This document shows, one piece after another, positions 1,248 through 20,000 of a stretch of 20,000 bases of DNA (position 1 is its first letter; each line of letters opens with the position of its first letter). Origin of the DNA: an uncultured virus (IMG/VR IMGVR_UViG_3300025881_001848) (taxonomy: Duplodnaviria > Heunggongvirae > Uroviricota > Caudoviricetes); IMG/VR virus record IMGVR_UViG_3300025881_001848; one strand, given 5' to 3'. Both the position numbers and the translations under genes were made by a program. Below the pieces are notes generated by a model. That model was not told where the DNA came from, did no database searches, and was given only the letters and a program-made list of their open reading frames with translations.

Positions 1248-1259
1248 CCACACACAAGG
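1248..1259 (+). promoter_or_regulatory. CA-rich leader box fused to SD (CCACACACAAGG)
   Basis: Lies between P1 and ATG 1268; 1249-1258 is the exact reverse complement of CTTGTGTGTG at 18836 and 18898. Confidence 0.75.
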
Positions 1260-2530: not shown

Positions 2531-3295
2531 ATGGGAAAAAGCATGGCGCAAGTTACTAAAATTTTACAAAACTCCCCCGTTAACCCTGAGTCTTTTGAGT
2601 CACGTGTTGATGTATGGGCGAACTATTTTCATGCCAAAAGCGTGCTAAAGAGCAAGCATCATTTAACTGCTTTTTTTATTGATAGCGCCATTCATTTAGT
2701 AAAGGATAATGGGTGCACGCAAAAGGATGCGCGGCTGCTTGTGGATTATGTTTTCAGCCGTCCTACTGGCGACACTTACCAAGAAATTGGCGGCGTCATG
2801 GTCACATTGGCCTGTTTGTGTAGCGCATCGGGTATCAATATGCACGATGACGGCGAAGCAGAATTATCAAGCATATGTACCAATCCAATTATGCGCCCGA
2901 TGGCGGTGATTGATATTACTGAGCAAGATACCTTTCAATCCCGTGTCGTGCCATGGTTAAAACACTGTTTTGGAGAGGAAATAGCGGCCGATAGAGTAGA
3001 GCGAAATCATCGTTTTTTGGAAGAGTCATTGGAGTTAGTACAAGCTGAAGGTGTCACCGCTGAGCAAGCGCATTACTGGGTGGCAGAGGCTTATAAGAAA
3101 GAAGCTTTATCACCACAACCGGCCTTAAGCGTTGGCAATGTCATGGTGAATTTAGCGGTTCTATGTCGCTCCCTGGGGTTGTGCATGCATGAGAATGCGG
3201 ATATTGAGCTTGCTCGTATTTGGACGAAGGTTGAGAAAATTCGTCACAAGCAAAAGACCAAACCTAAGCATTCACCCTTGCCGATGGCGCAGTAA
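2531..3295 (+). CDS. Internally duplicated all-alpha NTP pyrophosphatase (MazG-like) family protein
   Basis: Motifs ERNHRFLEESLELVQA and VFSRPTGDTYQEIGGVMVTL; two homologous halves of about 95 aa; start may be ATG 2543. Confidence 0.6.
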   Translation: MGKSMAQVTKILQNSPVNPESFESRVDVWANYFHAKSVLKSKHHLTAFFIDSAIHLVKDNGCTQKDARLLVDYVFSRPTGDTYQEIGGVMVTLACLCSASGINMHDDGEAELSSICTNPIMRPMAVIDITEQDTFQSRVVPWLKHCFGEEIAADRVERNHRFLEESLELVQAEGVTAEQAHYWVAEAYKKEALSPQPALSVGNVMVNLAVLCRSLGLCMHENADIELARIWTKVEKIRHKQKTKPKHSPLPMAQ

Positions 3296-3296
3296 A

Positions 3297-3602
3297 ATGA
3301 GTCAGCTCAAGGAGGGGGTTTATGAACATCATAGCGGTGCCCGTTATCATGTAGTGTGCACAGGTACGCATTTGCTAGATGGAAATGAGCCTGAGTGTGT
3401 CGTTTATCGAGATTTAAAAACAGGGGTTTACTGGTCAAGGCCGGTGGTTGATTTTGCTATGCCGTGGGTGGGCGAGCCACCTATTGTGAGGCGGTCGAAT
3501 AATTCAGTTAAGACGAACGTAGAAGCGACAAAGCCTAATTATCCGGTGCGCACATTCTGGCAAAAGGAAAGTGGGTGGTTTTGGCTCGAAGAACCTCAGT
3601 AA
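3297..3602 (+). CDS. DUF1653-like protein
   Basis: GVYEHHSGARYHVV...CVVYRDL...WSRP pattern; start moved to ATG 3297, just after the upstream stop. Confidence 0.7.
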   Translation: MSQLKEGVYEHHSGARYHVVCTGTHLLDGNEPECVVYRDLKTGVYWSRPVVDFAMPWVGEPPIVRRSNNSVKTNVEATKPNYPVRTFWQKESGWFWLEEPQ

Positions 3603-3623
3603 AATTAACATTAATAAGATGAT

Positions 3624-3652
3624 AAAAAGGCGCTGTTAAATAGCGCCTTTTT
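3624..3652. terminator. Bidirectional intrinsic terminator
   Basis: AAAAAGGCGCTG-TTAAA-TAGCGCCTTTTT between convergent genes. Confidence 0.85.
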
Positions 3653-3678
3653 GGTTTTCGTGACAATTTAACACACTG

Positions 3679-4206
3679 TTATTTTTCTACCCACACATTC
3701 GCGCCTTGAACGATGGCATTGCTAAACTGAATGCCTTGGATAGACTCACCAGTATCTTTATAGTAGAAAAACGGCTTATCTTCATTAAAAGGGTTGTAGG
3801 TGACGGCTCGCATACCGCTTAACTCAGTAATATGCGCGTCAAACGCATCGACCAGTGTGGCTCTTACATGCGCGTGTACGTTGCGCACTTGGTCGGATAA
3901 TACTCTTAATCTGCCCGTACCCACAAAGAACGCTGCATCTTTAAGCGCATAACATTTTGCATAACCGGCCACGAGGTTTTTGAACTCCCCCGATTTTGCT
4001 TTTGCAGAGAAGAACTCAGGTTTATTTAAGTTGCGATACACATCGACCTTTTCCCCGACTGTTAAGTGCCGCTTAAACGCTTGTCCTTTGTTTTTAATCA
4101 CTGAGTGCATGCGATTGTTCTGCATAACACTGTTAACGCCTTGGTGACGTTGTTTGGTACTAATAGGTTCGAGTTGTGTGTCGAACATTGATAGTTGCTG
4201 TTGCAT
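3679..4206 (-). CDS. Conserved phage-type hypothetical protein (VYRNL...NVHA...TYNP family) with N-terminal QLSMF
   Basis: SD GAGGAG upstream of ATG at 4206; motifs VYRNLNK, RNVHAHV, VTYNPF. Confidence 0.75.
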   Translation of the reverse strand: MQQQLSMFDTQLEPISTKQRHQGVNSVMQNNRMHSVIKNKGQAFKRHLTVGEKVDVYRNLNKPEFFSAKAKSGEFKNLVAGYAKCYALKDAAFFVGTGRLRVLSDQVRNVHAHVRATLVDAFDAHITELSGMRAVTYNPFNEDKPFFYYKDTGESIQGIQFSNAIVQGANVWVEK

Positions 4207-4290
4207 AATTGTCTCCTCGTGCGTACCAATATAGTACATTAAAAAGTAAAAATGTCCAGCTAAAAACACCGATTCTAAAAAATTAAATGA

Positions 4291-4318
4291 TTGACAAAGT
4301 AGGGTTTAATGATAAAGT
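4291..4318 (+). promoter_or_regulatory. Sigma70 promoter P2 (operator half-site only)
   Basis: TTGACA 4291-4296, 16 bp, TG-a-TAAAGT 4313-4318. Confidence 0.8.
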
Positions 4319-4345
4319 AAGCTTATATTTATGATGGGGGAATGT

Positions 4346-4738
4346 ATGAACGAACAATTACAAAAAGCGGTTGCAACGTCGATAGAAAAAGAAGGTGTAG
4401 CAGAAACGGCGATGTCACTGTGTAGTATGTTATCTGCAATTGCCGAGACACATGGCGACATTACTCACGCCGATACTAAAGGAACGGTGACGGTGAAAGC
4501 CAGTGTACCGAATAACCCAAAACGAGCGGTCAGCAAAGATTCTGTTGTCGCAGCGGCACATTATCATTTAGCGATTGTGCAACGATACCGTGAATATTTC
4601 ACAACTGCTTGTACGAGTATCAAAAATGAAACAGTGACACACTCGGAACTTGACGCCTTGACAATACCGGCGAATAACATGATTTCACAACTGGAAGAAA
4701 TGTTGCAAGCCATCACAAGGAAAAAGAAAATAGATTGA
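4346..4738 (+). CDS. Hypothetical protein
   Basis: SD GGGGGA before ATG 4346; downstream of P2. Confidence 0.75.
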   Translation: MNEQLQKAVATSIEKEGVAETAMSLCSMLSAIAETHGDITHADTKGTVTVKASVPNNPKRAVSKDSVVAAAHYHLAIVQRYREYFTTACTSIKNETVTHSELDALTIPANNMISQLEEMLQAITRKKKID

Positions 4739-4763: not shown

Positions 4764-4799
4764 TACCTTAGTTAATTGAAACACACAACCGAGGTGATT

Positions 4800-6535: not shown

Positions 6536-6828
6536 ATTTAAGCACGCTAAAACCTCTTTGTGAGCGATGTTTGCTATTGTCAAAGCAGTTGACAGATCCA
6601 GATAAAATTAAGCGTGTAGAAGGGCTTATAGACACCTTGCTTGCTAATGTAGATTGGCCAGATTTAAAAATTGGTGTATGGCTGGGATCTGCTGAGACTA
6701 TATTGATTGAAAACGGAGTGAGCAGCTATGAGGCAGAGCGAGATTTCTCTAGGCCGATTAAGCATGCTTATTTCACTTCTATTGGTGAGCCGATACCGGC
6801 CACTACAAATGTAATGGAAAATGAATGA
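6532..6828 (+). CDS. Hypothetical protein
   Basis: TTG start overlapping the upstream stop; SD AGGA. Confidence 0.7.
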   Translation: MNLSTLKPLCERCLLLSKQLTDPDKIKRVEGLIDTLLANVDWPDLKIGVWLGSAETILIENGVSSYEAERDFSRPIKHAYFTSIGEPIPATTNVMENE

Positions 6829-7517
6829 CTGATTTTCAGCACAAGGTGCGGCCGATTATATTAAATGCCGACATGGTGAATGCCTTATTGTCAGGTAAAA
6901 AGACAGTGACCCGTCTGCCAATCAAGGGAGATGTCCAGTTTTCTGAGCGAAGCGGGTTTAGCGTCGTGAACAAACTCGGTGTGCGAATGTCATGTGGTTT
7001 GGGTTTTACGCCACAAGAAACGCAACAGAATTTTATTAATGGCCGGTGCCCAATTGCCGTGGGCGATTTGTTGTGGGTGCGTGAGACATTTAAAATGAAG
7101 TTAAACAACTACAATGATTTAAAAGGCGAATATTGCGCTGAGTATGCTGCTGATGGTGGTTGTCGCTTGATGGATGCAAATATTGATAATAACGACCACC
7201 TTGCTTATGCTGTTTTGAAAGATACGTGGACGCCATCAATACACATGCCTAAGTATGCTAATAGATTAGTGCTGAAGGTGAAGCGAATTAGTGTTGAGAG
7301 AGTGCAATCAATTACCGATAAACAAGCGGTGGCTGAAGGTATGCCTAGTGCTGAGGAAGCGCAAGCCATGGCGATAGATGCGAATATGACGTGGTATCAA
7401 AAGCCGAAGGTGTGGTATAAGTCACTATGGGAAAAGTTATATGGCACGTGGGATGATGACCCTTATGTGTGGTGCATTGAGTTTGATGTGATTGACAAGA
7501 ATATTGAGGAAGTTTAA
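6825..7517 (+). CDS. ASCH/PUA-like domain phage-type protein
   Basis: RPII...MV-A-L-G-KT-TR, GD-LWVRET, W-PSIHMP, VER-Q-I----A-AEG, P-VW-IEF motifs. Confidence 0.75.
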   Translation: MTDFQHKVRPIILNADMVNALLSGKKTVTRLPIKGDVQFSERSGFSVVNKLGVRMSCGLGFTPQETQQNFINGRCPIAVGDLLWVRETFKMKLNNYNDLKGEYCAEYAADGGCRLMDANIDNNDHLAYAVLKDTWTPSIHMPKYANRLVLKVKRISVERVQSITDKQAVAEGMPSAEEAQAMAIDANMTWYQKPKVWYKSLWEKLYGTWDDDPYVWCIEFDVIDKNIEEV

Positions 7518-7541
7518 ATTGCCTCAATACACGGCTATTAA

Positions 7542-7561
7542 GCGAGTGGCTGCCCACTCGC
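7542..7561. terminator. Hairpin between convergent genes
   Basis: GCGAGTGG-CTGC-CCACTCGC; weak U-tracts. Confidence 0.5.
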
Positions 7562-7574
7562 ATTGTTTATCTAG

Positions 7575-8177
7575 TTAATATTCTTCGTGTTCTGGGTACA
7601 TAAACCCTTGATACTCACAACTTCCGCTTTTACCTTCATGCTCGTATTTGGCGACAGGGTTAAATGACAGTTTTATGTGGTGAGTGATCGTCATAAGATC
7701 GCTTATCTTTAACGTATTTATTCCTAGCAGTTCTGTTATATCGCGGATATCATTAATCGATTTACCGTCAAAAAATGAGACTGGTTCTGCGTAAGTTTTA
7801 ACGACTTTTACTTTTATTTTTCCGAACTTTTCAGTCAGCAAGGTTTTGATGTGCTCAACTAACACGAAAGATACATCGTAAAATACAAAGTTTTTGCCAA
7901 GTTGGTATATTTTAAAACTATCTGAGTCGAGGTAAACACCGGCCACTCTAATGTCTTCTGGGTCGGAATATTTGGGAATAGGGATGTTTTGTCGAGCTAA
8001 CCAGTTATAGACATCTACGCCACCAAAAACGCCATACCCTCCATAATTTTCTTCTTCGAGGTTGGGTTGTCCATCTGGCATTAAAAAGAACACTTTTTTG
8101 CCCGTATTTTCATGCTCTGCAAATTCGCAAGGGATTGATTCGTCGGTGTCGCATGTGGTAAAGCTAAATAAACCCAT
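7575..8177 (-). CDS. Conserved phage-type hypothetical protein (MG-FS-T-DT...YGGYGVFGG-D family)
   Basis: SD GGAG preceded by CACACACC; own promoter P4. Confidence 0.8.
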   Translation of the reverse strand: MGLFSFTTCDTDESIPCEFAEHENTGKKVFFLMPDGQPNLEEENYGGYGVFGGVDVYNWLARQNIPIPKYSDPEDIRVAGVYLDSDSFKIYQLGKNFVFYDVSFVLVEHIKTLLTEKFGKIKVKVVKTYAEPVSFFDGKSINDIRDITELLGINTLKISDLMTITHHIKLSFNPVAKYEHEGKSGSCEYQGFMYPEHEEY

Positions 8178-8210
8178 AGTGGTCTCCGGTGTGTGATGTA
8201 GTGAGTAATA

Positions 8211-8238
8211 ATATTATCATAATGAATTAATATGTCAA
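8211..8238 (-). promoter_or_regulatory. Sigma70 promoter P4 with operator (8214-8228) and CACACACCGGAG leader (8184-8195)
   Basis: Minus strand: TTGACA, 16 bp, TG-a-TAATAT; a second operator-like site at 8272-8286 precedes the divergent gene. Confidence 0.85.
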
Positions 8239-8568: not shown

Positions 8569-9456
8569 CTATTCGCCCTTACTATTCTCTTTCGCTTCTT
8601 CTGAATTACTATAACTATAATCCATCAAGCCCTTGAGTGTTTGTGCGCAAATATTGCCCTCATTATACGCTTGTGTTGCCACGCTCTGAATATAAGCTTC
8701 TTTGGCTTTTACATAAGCGTTGTGAGCCTCAATTTCTGTGTCAAAGGAGCCTAAAAATACGGGCTTACTCTTTATACTTAAACTTGATGAGAAGCGCTCT
8801 CCATTTTTAAGTGACTTCACGCCCCGTAAACAACTGCCTTTTGGATAGTTTTTCAAAAGTGAATTTATTTCAGCCGTCACTAAAACACATGTCTCAGGAG
8901 AATAATGTTTATTGCCTTGGATGATGATGTCTTTATCTAGTTCGCAGTATTTACCGGCTAAAGGCTGAGCGTCATACCAGCGTTTAAAATTACTAAACAC
9001 TAACCACTCAGGATCGATTGAACATCCTTTATACGTTGGTTTCCAATCGTGCCACGCAGTTGTGAAGCATCTGCGCATCATTTGCTGCCACTTGTTATAG
9101 GGTTTATAGTTGGTTCTTGTTTCAATTTTAGTGCCGTGACCAGGGATGTCGCTGTACCCGAACCCCTTACAAAGATCTCTCCTTACTTCTTGTTCTATAA
9201 GCTGTAACCCCTCAATTTTACCCATCAAATAGGATGCTTTCGCTGTTTTACCGTCAATTTTAGTGTGCCCTAAATCAACCAGCGCACTTTCTATCTTTTT
9301 TGGAACGGCGTTCAACCAAAAGTTCATCTCTTTTAAGGCTAGCACTACATCAACTTGGCCATCAGCGGTAAATGCCCCAGTTGCCTCAACGGCAGCGTCA
9401 ATGGGTTGGTCATAATGCAGTAGTTTAATAATAGGTAGCTTCTTATCTTCTTTCAT
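8569..9456 (-). CDS. HNH-like (His-Me finger variant) / AP2-type DNA-binding protein; paralog of 19143-20000
   Basis: Y-KW--M-RRC, YKGCS---EW--FSNF--W, LDKDII--GNK-YSP-TC, G-F----EA--AY motifs; SD AAGGA before ATG 9456. Confidence 0.75.
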   Translation of the reverse strand: MKEDKKLPIIKLLHYDQPIDAAVEATGAFTADGQVDVVLALKEMNFWLNAVPKKIESALVDLGHTKIDGKTAKASYLMGKIEGLQLIEQEVRRDLCKGFGYSDIPGHGTKIETRTNYKPYNKWQQMMRRCFTTAWHDWKPTYKGCSIDPEWLVFSNFKRWYDAQPLAGKYCELDKDIIIQGNKHYSPETCVLVTAEINSLLKNYPKGSCLRGVKSLKNGERFSSSLSIKSKPVFLGSFDTEIEAHNAYVKAKEAYIQSVATQAYNEGNICAQTLKGLMDYSYSNSEEAKENSKGE

Positions 9457-9601: not shown

Positions 9602-9629
9602 TTGACAAATTAGTTCATTTTGATAAAAT
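9602..9629 (+). promoter_or_regulatory. Sigma70 promoter P5 with operator (9612-9626) and doubled CA box GCACACACGCACACAAGG (9645-9662)
   Basis: TTGACA 9602-9607, 16 bp, TG-a-TAAAAT 9624-9629; AGTTCA-TTT-TGATAA. Confidence 0.85.
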
Positions 9630-9670
9630 AGGTTTATTGAATTCGCACACACGCACACAAGGTATTTATC

Positions 9671-13621: not shown

Positions 13622-13649
13622 TTGACAAATGCGTTCAATTTGATAATAT
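13622..13649 (+). promoter_or_regulatory. Sigma70 promoter P7 with operator (13632-13646) and TCACACACGGGAG leader (13656-13668)
   Basis: TTGACA, 16 bp, TG-a-TAATAT; CGTTCA-ATT-TGATAA. Confidence 0.85.
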
Positions 13650-13676
13650 GAGGTTTCACACACGGGAGATCCTATT

Positions 13677-16425: not shown

Positions 16426-16453
16426 TTGACAAAATATCTCATAATGGTATGAT
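16426..16453 (+). promoter_or_regulatory. Sigma70 promoter P9 with degenerate operator (16436-16450), extra operator 16382-16396 and CCACACACACAAGG leader (16462-16475)
   Basis: TTGACA 16426-16431, 16 bp, TG-g-TATGAT 16448-16453. Confidence 0.85.
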
Positions 16454-16483
16454 TAAGGCGTCCACACACACAAGGAAAAAATC

Positions 16484-17658: not shown

Positions 17659-18495
17659 ATGACCGCTATTACGGTATCAAACGAACAATTCGCCGCCTCT
17701 CAAGCCGCTATGATAAAAATGCTTGAAGATGAATATGCGATTAGAAATCAGTCTCCTTCGAAGATTAAGCATTTAACGTCCGTGATCCTTAATTACACCA
17801 ACTTTCATCAGTTGGAAGTGTTGCTAAAAGCTAAACAAGACGTACAAACACTCACAGCAGATAATCTTAAAAAGTGTCGCCACCAAGTGGCGACCATCGC
17901 CAAACGCATGATGGTAAAAGGCACACCCCTGAGTGGTTTGTATGTATGTGATAGCTGCCTGCATATTGATATGCATGATGAAATGACACCAGCGAAGCAT
18001 CTTAGCGAAAGGCTAGATGAAAATGGTATTTACACTGATGTGGAATGTCCTCATTGCCAAGCCTTGGCCTATTCAATGAATACGCACATTGAGGGTGGTA
18101 TGTTTGACACTGTATTTACAAGTAATACCTATGCTACATTACCCGACGCGATTAAATTTGCCGATACATTGACCGCAGAGTATAGCGGAAACGCAATCGA
18201 ACAGGATGTTGTTGACTCGCTTCGAATGCTATATTTTATGGCCGACCACGTGGGGAAAGAAGTGTTCGGAAACCCTTCGAACAAATATCAAGCGAGCCAT
18301 GTGTTATCGTCATTATTAAACAGTTGTGAGGAAGCGCTAAATAACGGGTGGATAGAAGGTATTACATTTGGCGGATTGCAGAAGTACTTGCGAAAAACGA
18401 TGTTCAAAGAGGAGTCAGAAGCCCTCACCTCAGCCGGTATCGATCTATGGTTAACCGCCGCGCTTATCAGTCCGTTTTTGGCGCTCGCTAAATAA
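17659..18495 (+). CDS. Hypothetical protein with a C4 zinc-ribbon-like motif
   Basis: CDSC...CPHC; SD AAGGA; about 190-nt leader from P10. Confidence 0.8.
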   Translation: MTAITVSNEQFAASQAAMIKMLEDEYAIRNQSPSKIKHLTSVILNYTNFHQLEVLLKAKQDVQTLTADNLKKCRHQVATIAKRMMVKGTPLSGLYVCDSCLHIDMHDEMTPAKHLSERLDENGIYTDVECPHCQALAYSMNTHIEGGMFDTVFTSNTYATLPDAIKFADTLTAEYSGNAIEQDVVDSLRMLYFMADHVGKEVFGNPSNKYQASHVLSSLLNSCEEALNNGWIEGITFGGLQKYLRKTMFKEESEALTSAGIDLWLTAALISPFLALAK

Positions 18496-18524
18496 AGGAA
18501 CAAATTGTTGTTATCAAAAGTATG

Positions 18525-18549
18525 GGTCGCAGCAGTTGCGGCCTTTTTT
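18525..18549 (+). terminator. Intrinsic terminator insulating the ncRNA locus
   Basis: GGTCGCAG-CAG-TTGCGGCC-TTTTTT. Confidence 0.7.
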
Positions 18550-18699
18550 GTAGATGAGATGGCTAAATCACTAGCCGTGTTAGGGGTTATTCATTATGAT
18601 AGTTAAACTTAAAATGATTTTTTTTGAATAAAAATCGTATATTTAACAAGCATCCAACCAATAAAACATATAAAAAAGTAAAAATAATGCTAAAATCGA

Positions 18700-18728
18700 T
18701 TGACAACTGTATGGGTATCCACTATTAT
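18700..18728 (+). promoter_or_regulatory. Sigma70 promoter P11 for the ncRNA, with A-rich UP-like element
   Basis: TTGACA 18700-18705, 17 bp, TATTAT 18723-18728; A-tracts at 18660-18695. Confidence 0.8.
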
Positions 18729-18835
18729 CATTACAAGTTAAAGAGAAAGACCAGCAGCAAGAACGGATTGCTTTGTTGGCAACAATCAAAAAGTGGTGAG
18801 ATGTCTGATGACAACTTATCAAAATGAAAAAATTA

Positions 18836-19038
18836 CTTGTGTGTGCAAAATGGGTGTGAGTTTTATCCACCCACAGCCTTCACAATAAAGCGTTAAACTT
18901 GTGTGTGAGGAGGGGAGTTGTGTCCCCTCCACCTTTCGCAAGAACCCAGTTAAAATGTGTGTGTGAGGTGGGGAGTTGTGTCCCCACCACCTTTCTCACA
19001 AAAGACTATGTGTGTGTTGGGCGACCTCTTGGTCGCCC
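18836..19038 (+). repeat. Four degenerate tandem units of about 51-62 nt (GU box + hairpin)
   Basis: GU boxes end at 18845, 18907, 18965, 19016; units 2 and 3 share TGTGTGTGAGG(A/T)GGGGAGTTGTGTCCCC(T/A)CCACCTTTC. Confidence 0.9.
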
Positions 19039-19044
19039 TTTTTT
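19019..19044 (+). terminator. Intrinsic terminator, also the hairpin of unit 4
   Basis: GGGCGACC-TCTT-GGTCGCCC-TTTTTT. Confidence 0.9.
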
Positions 19045-19142
19045 ATGCCTACGATTTACCTCCGGCGTCGTTTTCTGATCTTCTGCTAACATTCAGTATT
19101 ATTACTTACTGCATGGATGCAATGATGAGATTGAATTTGGGA

Positions 19143-20000
19143 ATGAAGCTAGATCCTCAATTGGTTAATATTTTACACGCCGATTTACCTGTCATTAATT
19201 ACGCGAAAGAAAAAGGGTATGTATCAAACGGAGAAATTGATCTGTATAGCATGCTTGAGTTTGTAGGCGTGCCCAGGCCTTCAATAAATAATAGGGTTGA
19301 AAAGCTAATAAAAAAACTTCCCATACTAGGCACCTCATTATCGCTAATTAAAGTGGGAGGGGAGGCTCAGTATATGTTTGGTGTTACCGATGCAGTAGAT
19401 GTGCTTGAGAAAATAATTAGGTCAGAGTTAATTGGTGGTTATGGTATTAATGATATCCCACAGAAGATAACTGGGGAATACAAAATATGTTACGAAAAAT
19501 GGCGCAGCATGCTCAGGCGTTGTTACAGGGAGGAATGGCACATATATAAACCTTCATACTCAGGTTGTTCAGTAGCTAAAGAATGGTTCTATTTTAGCAA
19601 CTTTATGCGCTGGCATAATGAAAATTATACAAAAGGTCATGTGTTAGATAAAGATATTATAATAAAAGGGAATAAACATTATTCACCCAAAACATGCGTT
19701 TACGTCCCTGAATATGTGAATAGTTTGTTGATATCACGGACGAGGTCGAATAGGGAGTTACCATCAGGTGTTTTCCTGTTGAAAAGCGATAAAGTCACGC
19801 CGTACAACGTAAAGTTTGAGTTAGGCAAAAAGAAAATGGCTTTAGGTAGGTTTATAAGCCCTGAAGAAGCATTTCTAGCCTGCAAAAAGGTCAGAGAGAA
19901 ACATATTAGAACCGTTGCAGAAAAGGCTTTTGACAAAGGTGAAATAAGCCTTAAATCCTTTAATGCGTTATGTAGGCATCAGGTAGAGGTAGGAGATTAA
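19143..20000 (+). CDS. HNH-like / AP2-type DNA-binding protein; paralog of 8569-9456
   Basis: YEKWRSMLRRC, YSGCSV--EW--FSNF--W, LDKDII--GNK-YSPKTC; start set by N-terminal homology with the paralog (ATG 19122 also possible); stop at 19998-20000. Confidence 0.75.
   Translation: MKLDPQLVNILHADLPVINYAKEKGYVSNGEIDLYSMLEFVGVPRPSINNRVEKLIKKLPILGTSLSLIKVGGEAQYMFGVTDAVDVLEKIIRSELIGGYGINDIPQKITGEYKICYEKWRSMLRRCYREEWHIYKPSYSGCSVAKEWFYFSNFMRWHNENYTKGHVLDKDIIIKGNKHYSPKTCVYVPEYVNSLLISRTRSNRELPSGVFLLKSDKVTPYNVKFELGKKKMALGRFISPEEAFLACKKVREKHIRTVAEKAFDKGEISLKSFNALCRHQVEVGD

Follow-up and report, generated by a model that had tools for sequence, protein, structure and literature searches.

The stretch of DNA considered here, referred to below as the window, comprises 20,000 nucleotides (nt) from an uncultured virus (IMG/VR record IMGVR_UViG_3300025881_001848). 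It contains a locus that is very probably a real and functional RNA gene, with a predicted non-coding RNA of about 310 nt encoded on the plus strand from 18735 to approximately 19044; the region studied was 18700–19046. The gene opens with a sigma-70-type promoter, TTGACA-17-TATTAT (18700–18728, with the -35 hexamer at 18700–18705, the -10 hexamer at 18723–18728 and the predicted start near 18735), that agrees with the consensus at 11 of 12 positions and is one of five sites of this quality in the window. It closes with an intrinsic terminator (19019–19046) formed by the stem-loop GGGCGACC-TCTT-GGTCGCCC (19019–19038) and the U run TTTTTTAT; seven of the eight pairs in its stem are G-C, and it heads the list of terminator-like sites of the window. 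The total numbers of promoter-like sites (59 vs. 51.3 ± 6.7 in shuffled sequences) and of terminator-like sites (22 vs. 17.2 ± 4.4) are not above those in the shuffles, and therefore only the quality and the conservation of this promoter and this terminator are taken into account.

Between the two signals, an A/G-rich 5' domain (18735–18835, with a predicted hairpin at about 18794–18821) is followed by four units, each beginning with a G/U-rich motif that we call the GU box. The first box, CTTGTGTGTG (18836–18845), precedes a hairpin of type B, TGGGTG...CACCCA (18851–18873), with a CU-rich tail CAGCCTTCAC. The second, again CTTGTGTGTG (18898–18907), precedes a hairpin of type A (18909–18937) in which the arms GGAGGGGA (18909–18916) and TCCCCTCC (18923–18930) enclose a GTTGTG loop and are followed by an ACCTTTC tail. 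The third box, ATGTGTGTGTG (18955–18965), is followed by another type A hairpin with the same loop and tail (18967–18995) and with the arms GGTGGGGA (18967–18974) and TCCCCACC (18981–18988). The fourth, ATGTGTGTGT (19008–19017), adjoins the terminator and belongs to the most conserved unit across the three homologous RNAs described below. The core sequence TGTGTGTG has its only starts within the 20 kb at 18838, 18900, 18956/18958 and 19009, while four TGTGTG loci of the plus strand fall within 312 nt against seven in the remaining ~19.7 kb. The four UGUGUGUG motifs of the RNA are the counterpart in complement of the CACACA found just before the ribosome-binding site in many early genes of the same element. 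Folding of the plus strand is markedly stable (z = -5.56, with none of 100 shuffles as stable); the minus strand of the same region gives z = -4.18. All coordinates that an earlier reading of this stretch (hereafter the original prediction) had given for promoter, terminator, boxes, stems and leader matches hold on recheck, including its near-consensus promoter, its strong terminator, the four GU boxes and the paired stem changes between units 2 and 3.

Two side observations concern the RNA itself. Its first 30 nt (18735–18765) consist largely of A-R-N triplets (AAG UUA AAG AGA AAG ACC AGC AGC AAG AAC), a pattern that is partly retained in one homologue (L023) and not clearly in the other (L036); the 5' domain as a whole is likewise similar in L023 and divergent in L036. 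A-R-N repeats have been described as Hfq-binding (PMC4104026). By our reading of the unit sequences, nine of the 11 internal hairpins of the three RNAs are followed by a pyrimidine-rich motif resembling an anti-Shine-Dalgarno sequence (ACCUUUC, ACCUUCC, CUUCCCUCC) and then by an A-rich linker (AAAAGA). In the window these motifs lie at 18876–18882, 18931–18937 and 18989–18995, and they have counterparts in L023 and L036. They could pair with AAGG or GGAG Shine-Dalgarno (SD) sequences, or could serve as a site for a chaperone or an RNase.

Homologues and a second RNA family

Relatives of the element were found by scanning metagenome contigs with the consensus of its early promoters, a pattern that did not include the leader motif discussed in the next section. 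The scan yielded 108 matching stretches, listed as 105 loci, and many contigs were hit several times. Within 596 Gb of prokaryote genomes the pattern gave 38 singletons in unrelated genomes, which we take as the chance level; the metagenome contigs with several matches are therefore considered to be relatives and not chance findings. Searches of the fetched loci with blastn and nhmmer recovered, in other contigs of marine metagenomes, two homologues of the RNA, one with six GU boxes (L023:2163-2642, plus strand; the same contig is also listed as L024) and one with four (L036:2282-1943, minus strand), and nhmmer with four profiles found no RNA copies beyond these two in the fetched loci. In each case the gene immediately ahead of the RNA is an orthologue of that for the 278-amino-acid (aa) protein at 17659–18495 of the window.

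The three RNAs are about 68–76% identical overall at the DNA level, and the promoter, all the GU boxes and the terminator are conserved. The homologous promoters read TTGACA-17-TA(A/T)TAT, with the -35, the -10 and the CATTACAAGT start region preserved, and the layout is common to all three: promoter, 5' domain, GU-box units, and a last GU box directly before the intrinsic terminator. Each of the 14 units opens with UUGUGUG or AUGUGUG. Compensatory changes were found in all three types of hairpin. The seven type A units, GGNGGGG(A)-GUUGUG-(U)CCCCNCC, have A-U, U-A or C-G as their third pair, and six of them keep the GUUGUG loop; in type B, GGGYG...CRCCC, the fifth pair is U-A, U.G or C-G over four units; and in the terminator a C-G pair has become U-A in L023 and a G-C pair has become A-U in L036. 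The evidence for a conserved structured RNA gene is good, but it comes from three genomes only.

The region had been called free of open reading frames (ORFs), which is not literally correct, since frames at 18899–19078 (59 aa) and at 18957–20000 touch it, the latter staying open through the terminator into a gene for an HNH endonuclease. What stands is that no frame is kept in the homologues, where every frame holds 2–7 stops and the number of units and the indels differ. The HNH protein most likely starts near 19113, and the part of the long frame upstream of this point is not conserved. It is hardly credible that the locus encodes a small Cys-rich protein such as the product of the 59-aa frame: this ORF is on the list, and an SD-like AGGAGG within the type A hairpin does stand ahead of an in-frame GTG, yet the frame crosses the terminator, what looks like an SD is itself the 5' arm of a hairpin with covarying pairs, and the homologues differ by 1–2-nt indels as well as by unit number. 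A promoter and a terminator of its own, conserved in relatives, together with the lack of a conserved frame, are what is expected of a gene for a trans-acting small RNA (sRNA).

In line with the original prediction, the RNA is not a member of any described family. Rfam gave no match at the gathering threshold over the whole window, GcvB (RF00022) included; at E<=10 the interval 18500–19200 gave 19 matches, all far under their thresholds and none of them GcvB; and the homologous loci returned one transfer RNA (tRNA) and two group II intron matches only. BLASTN of 18600–19100 against plasmid and phage collections found no DNA match, nor did megablast of the whole window against phages. Scans of IMG/VR with the unit, promoter, type A hairpin and terminal-unit patterns, with the 278-aa protein and with the protein alignment A1 found nothing; the same was true of a metagenome scan with alignment A1, and the terminal-unit pattern had no matches in prokaryote genome contigs. 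The literature searched held no account of such an RNA, nor of the CACACAAGG leader motif in phages.

The succession of promoter, tandem structured units of 40–60 nt and terminator recalls the type III antitoxins, and pseudo-ToxI arrays encoded by phages are known. A ToxI-like or similar anti-defence decoy, cut into units that neutralise an abortive-infection nuclease of the host, is nevertheless very improbable here. The units are not near-identical, having in common only an 8–10-nt box and a hairpin with varying stems; neither a ToxN-like nor another defence protein stands beside any copy, with nine of the ten flanking proteins lacking a PADLOC match and the tenth being a group II intron reverse transcriptase; and the complementarity to the leaders would stay unexplained. 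Nor is the locus a CRISPR array or a set of solitary repeat units, which would show identical repeats of 25–40 nt with unique spacers between them: similarity of 89% over 46 nt is seen between just two of the units, and what is conserved is 8–10 nt.

Scanning the fetched loci for TGTGTG clusters revealed a second family of RNAs bearing the box. Its complete representative is an array of nine hairpins about 40 nt apart (L017:7463-7824, minus strand) lying directly behind a tRNA-Arg(TCT) gene, with which it occupies 7463–7902; a U run comes after its last hairpin, which doubles as a terminator. The other representative, with at least three hairpins (L049:3644-3794, plus strand), reaches the end of its contig and follows the orthologous upstream gene without a tRNA. 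The loop is UUGUGUGUGG in nine of the 12 hairpins, with eight of its ten columns (UGUGU.UGG) invariant and a ninth nearly so. The stems are paired in 93.4% of cells, ten of the 11 pairs have changed on both sides, none of 500 shuffles reached the covariation score, and controls with slid alignment drop to 30–46% paired. The array matches no Rfam family and is structurally unrelated to the RNA of the window, and its loop is the exact complement of CCACACACAA, which stands in the window leaders at 1247–1256 and 16463–16472. Since two unrelated scaffolds display the same box, the box itself is probably the working part. A pattern of two such boxes had seven matching loci in IMG/VR, none of which resembles the hairpin-loop array of L017 and L049; three show just the two matched boxes, and the other four are tandem repeats rich in G and T or are otherwise G/T-rich. 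The leader of the messenger RNA (mRNA) that bears the L017 array is itself without the complementary motif. Another locus flagged in the cluster scan, L022:7852-8111, was rejected on inspection as containing no array.

These data also bear on whether the region might have no role in trans, being a spacer rich in hairpins and terminators, a site at which mobile elements land or a remnant of leader cassettes that became inverted, in which case its complementarity to the leaders would be historical. Mobile elements do stand directly behind the terminator (the HNH gene in the window and a group II intron in L023), and the 10-nt identity of box and leader motif could have come from an inverted duplication. 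We nevertheless consider this improbable: promoter, boxes and terminator have been kept at the level of overall divergence given above, the stems change in a compensatory manner, an unrelated scaffold carries the same box, and outside the 10-nt box the region is not the reverse complement of a leader cassette.

CA boxes in the early leaders

The counterpart of the GU box is a C/A-rich motif, the CA box, which in six leaders of the window offers an exact complement of 8–10 nt to a GU box. The full 10-nt complement CACACACAAG abuts the SD of gene 1268 (1249–1258, plus strand, promoter at 1203) and recurs, as part of CACACACACAAG (16463–16474, plus), against the SD of gene 16484 (promoter at 16426); its starts at 1249 and 16465 are the only ones in the window, as the original prediction had it. 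The shorter runs named there are present as well: ACACACAAC (4781–4789, plus) before the SD of gene 4800 (promoter at 4735), CACACACC (8188–8195, minus) before that of gene 8177 (promoter at 8238), the double box CACACACGCACACAAG (9646–9661, plus) before that of gene 9671 (promoter at 9602), and CACACAC (13657–13663, plus) before the GGGAG of gene 13677 (promoter at 13622). The box of gene 4800 includes, at 4784–4789, a CACAAC complementary to the GTTGTG loops. All six genes are the first after a strong promoter, and the common form of the box directly 5' of the SD is CACACA(A)AGG. When the CA box is scored as a (CA)4 8-mer that may differ at no more than one position and lies at -28 to -5 of the gene start, it is found at six of nine promoter-proximal starts of the window and at none of the 25 other starts (Fisher p = 6e-5).

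The same arrangement was seen in the clade at large. Leaders were collected in the window and on those contigs where the promoter pattern [AG]ATTGACA-N16-17-TANNNT occurs two or more times, one behind each occurrence; 13 promoters, among them that of the RNA itself, were dropped for having no SD-plus-ATG within 80 nt by a simple rule, which left 108 leaders, 102 of them distinct. A CA box is present in 46 of the 102 distinct leaders, as compared with 1.4% of 20,000 random 24-nt windows of the same DNA, and the leaders of the RNA-bearing relatives have CA boxes abutting the SD as well; relatives with the RNA but without such leaders, which the original prediction had named as evidence against it, were thus not what was found. 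In 33 of the 46 the box ends 11–13 nt ahead of the ATG, whereas its distance to the -10 hexamer varies from 8 to 19 nt. It is therefore to the SD, not the -10, that the box is anchored, and this argues for a role at the level of RNA or translation over that of a DNA operator.

The leader of gene 1268 (1229–1255) opens with GUGUGU, which is able to pair in cis with the CA box of the same leader (GTGTGTATTGAAGAAATCCACACAC), and this arrangement is also found in one leader of L022 (GTGTGTGTCAGTTAAATACACACACAAGG). Such leader starts may represent a built-in cis form of the GU/CA pairing.

Proposed pairing and mechanism, and known systems

Two conserved and abundant sets of motifs complementary to each other are present in one group of genomes, and RNA–RNA pairing is the simplest account of this fact. 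The core duplexes between GU and CA boxes span 8–10 bp at about -11 to -15 kcal/mol and cover the AAG of an AAGG SD; CUUGUGUGUG/CACACACAAG gives -13.9 kcal/mol and UUGUGUGUGG/CCACACACAA gives -14.7 kcal/mol. Promoter-proximal leaders pair better with GU boxes than do other starts (Mann-Whitney p = 0.005, n = 9 vs. 25). On balance we incline to the view that the RNA is a multivalent antisense RNA, similar to GcvB in its manner of action but unrelated to it, which would pair with the CA-box enhancers of the early mRNAs of its own element; that the outcome of this pairing is repression we hold with somewhat less assurance.

The proposed mechanism is as follows. The RNA polymerase of the host would transcribe the ~310-nt RNA from the promoter at 18700–18728 to the terminator at 19019–19046, producing a scaffold in which a 5' domain of about 100 nt is followed by four GU boxes of the UUGUGUGUG type spaced by three stable hairpins, the latter presumably insulating the boxes and stabilising the RNA. 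Each GU box is the Watson-Crick complement of (A)CACACA(A)AGG, which stands just 5' of the SD, and partly overlaps it, in the mRNAs expected from the repeated strong early promoters of the element. If the CA box is a translational enhancer of the ACA type, or a standby site, its pairing with a GU box would silence the enhancer and cover the 5' edge of the SD, so that many early mRNAs would lose translation together and possibly then decay. With several boxes per molecule, one stable RNA could titrate several leaders. Transcription, pairing in the cell, its direction and timing, repression as its outcome, any chaperone, any processing and the role of the RNA as a governor or shut-off of early genes are what we infer from the DNA sequence.

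A number of results weigh against this mechanism. The GU boxes are promiscuous: the top 1% of 5,561 background windows reach -17.8 kcal/mol, a value attained by only two of the nine promoter-proximal leaders, and the non-proximal starts 4206 and 15128 score about equally well; the duplex energies are therefore a poor discriminator. The boxes have an only average predicted accessibility (mean probability of being unpaired 0.33–0.74 vs. 0.40–0.44 RNA-wide), and CACAA-like stretches in the unit tails of the window RNA can themselves pair with the GU boxes. A good CA box is missing from three of the nine leaders of the window (4346, 12576 and the weak 14534) and from 56 of the 102 of the clade. 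The promoter is repeated together with its leader as one cassette, of which a conserved ACTGAA-like stretch is also part; the 46 CA-box leaders are therefore not independent events, and part of the apparent conservation of the box may reflect the common ancestry of paralogous cassettes. The 25 boxes with one deviation lack a wobble-biased substitution pattern, with eight wobble-compatible transitions (seven A to G, one C to U) and the rest being transversions, many of them at the edge. Having a sigma-70-type promoter itself, the RNA would be made together with its proposed targets, which leaves the timing unexplained. The covariation of the first family is limited to a few positions because it is represented by only three genomes. 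Finally, the sequence is present in three sequencing runs, all of marine metagenome DNA and none of RNA; their contigs show no variant across the RNA region.

The GU boxes might instead titrate an RNA-binding protein of the host or of the element without pairing with the CA boxes, as CsrB and RsmZ do with CsrA. One short motif displayed multivalently on variable hairpins is indeed the architecture of protein-sequestering RNAs, the second family resembling them especially, and the number of boxes varies (4, 6, 4, 9). The motif, however, is UUGUGUGUGG and not GGA: the loops are GUUGUG or GUGUGU, and GGA is confined to the stems of the type A hairpins instead of lying in loops or linkers. We know of no bacterial regulator that binds GU repeats. 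A sponge would also leave unexplained why the exact complement of the box, flanks included, is the most enriched motif beside the SD of the early leaders. Since a complementary RNA motif is present in the same genomes, pairing between RNAs is favoured over protein titration, and we regard a protein decoy as a rather poor prospect.

Multivalent pairing with the early leaders has its closest precedent in the enterobacteria, where ACA motifs just upstream of the SD have been reported to enhance translation and the G/U-rich sRNA GcvB to repress it by pairing with them (PMC3879156). The window RNA is alike in being an sRNA gene running from promoter to terminator with a G/U-rich seed against C/A-rich sites just 5' of the SD in multiple mRNAs. 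It differs in having no similarity to GcvB in sequence or structure, in that the RNAs of its clade have 4–9 copies of the seed, exact (UG)n boxes with hairpins between them, and in being encoded by a mobile element to whose own early leaders it is complementary. The term GcvB-like is thus an analogy of mechanism, not of family membership. GcvB is further marked by Hfq-dependent action and by a chromosomal gene divergent from gcvA; the window RNA is flanked by genes of the element without assigned function. The GcvB-like multivalent RNA of the original prediction is borne out in part: the conserved structured gene and the complementarity of seed and leaders are solid, and the function is a reading of sequence.

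The likeness to GcvB also suggests that the RNA might be directed at the host, its GU boxes and GUUGUG loops pairing with C/A-rich enhancers of host mRNAs such as those of amino-acid and peptide transporters, with the CA boxes of the element being ordinary enhancers and their complementarity a side effect. Its seed has the composition described for pairing with GcvB targets (PMC3879156), its promoter is of the host type, and the GUUGUG loop is kept in six of seven type A hairpins, yet CACAAC occurs in few leaders of the element. On the other hand, with complementarity that is exact, the leaders of the element would be affected anyway, CA boxes are concentrated in its own promoter-proximal leaders, and the RNA has no similarity to the GcvB model. 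We consider a host-directed mimic unlikely as the principal role, though it is a somewhat better candidate than a protein decoy and is compatible with the pairing to the early leaders of the element that we propose.

Among phage RNAs, c4 of P1/P7 and sar of P22 are alike in pairing with phage mRNAs near the ribosome-binding site and blocking translation, but, as given in Table 1 of PMC12197685, they act in temperate phages on one operon (ant) at one or two sites, whereas the repeated seed of the window RNA faces dozens of unlinked leaders. The phage sRNAs in that table are for the most part those of temperate phages, with a single operon or a few host genes as targets, and none of them is built from repeats with several seeds directed at an entire class of promoters.

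The element and its probable early region

The window has a G+C content of 41% and consists of tightly packed short genes, mostly on the plus strand. The majority lack a known family, and those matches that library scans (PHROGs included) did return are of phage type: two paralogous HNH homing endonucleases (phrog_953) at 8569–9456 on the minus strand and 19113–20000 on the plus strand, an L5 gp82-like protein, a DarA_C domain and an ASCH protein. For the 278-aa protein encoded ahead of the RNA, the record gives a contig of 564,925 bases, and the sole relative of the protein (46% identity) is on one of 327,179 bases; the protein has no family in Pfam, PHROGs, NCBIfam or PADLOC, and Atlas offers weak look-alikes at most. 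Among the long ORFs of related loci, PHROGs scans that covered 34 of 105 returned a nuclease, DNA methyltransferases, a thymidylate synthase, an NAD-dependent DNA ligase and a group II intron reverse transcriptase. The PHROGs matches of the window, its promoter architecture and the 565-kb and 327-kb contigs suggest that the window is probably the early region of an uncultured giant phage. No virion gene was found by PHROGs in the window or in those 34 of 105 long ORFs, and the giant phage is for this reason something that we infer.

A perfect TTGACA hexamer with a 16–17-nt spacer occurs at 11 sites of the window, many of which share the longer consensus GATTGACAAAT..TCAtTTTGATAAnAT. The repeated early cassette, found at 1203, 4291, 4735, 9602, 13622, 14463 and 16426 on the plus strand and at 8238 on the minus strand, consists of an A-rich upstream stretch, GATTGACAAAT, TCAtTTTGATAAnAT (an extended -10), an (A/T)TTGAA or ACTGAA stretch after the start, the CA box, the SD and the ATG; the copy at 4291 lacks the CA box, and the same cassette was found dozens of times in related contigs. 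One more promoter of this type (GATTGACAAG...TAAATT; 7492–7569, plus strand) lies at the end of the ORF 6825–7517 and has a terminator-like hairpin (7542–7561) about 20 nt downstream. It may give rise to a very short transcript, or the hairpin may be the common terminator of two convergent genes.

Mobile elements adjoin the RNA in two of the genomes. In the window the HNH gene 19113–20000 is directly behind the terminator of the RNA, and in L023 the same place is taken by a group II intron (L023:2643-4498), whose GTGCG start comes directly after the T run of the terminator, with Rfam matches to domains D1-D4 at 2774–3060 and a reverse transcriptase ORF at 3227–4498. Some bacterial group II introns are known to home to sites just behind terminator hairpins.

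In phage T4 the translational repressor RegA and the endoribonuclease RegB bring about a collective post-transcriptional down-regulation of early mRNAs through a common motif of the initiation region. As a tentative and broader reading, for which the odds are perhaps slightly adverse, an uncultured clade of marine giant phages may possess an RNA counterpart of this control, in which the effector would be an RNA instead of a protein and the common motif the CA box upstream of the SD. The early programme would then be under an RNA-based master control exerted by two converged scaffolds, one a free-standing array spaced by hairpins, as in the window, and the other a tRNA-linked array of nine hairpin loops; these would present 4–9 seeds of the UUGUGUGUG type that titrate CA-box enhancers in a large share of the sigma-70 early leaders and so act as a stoichiometric governor or a shut-off timer.

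Should this be true, a giant element of the virulent type would use a single enhancer motif to label much of its early regulon and would encode multivalent RNAs bearing the exact complement of that motif, thereby possessing a compact and programmable post-transcriptional switch for a whole temporal class of genes. It would also be an independent natural example of ACA/CA enhancers serving as regulatory handles. The pair (UG)n/(CA)n is a very simple combination of seed and target for synthetic control, and sequence alone can suffice to find the regulators of promoter-leader cassettes in uncultured phages.

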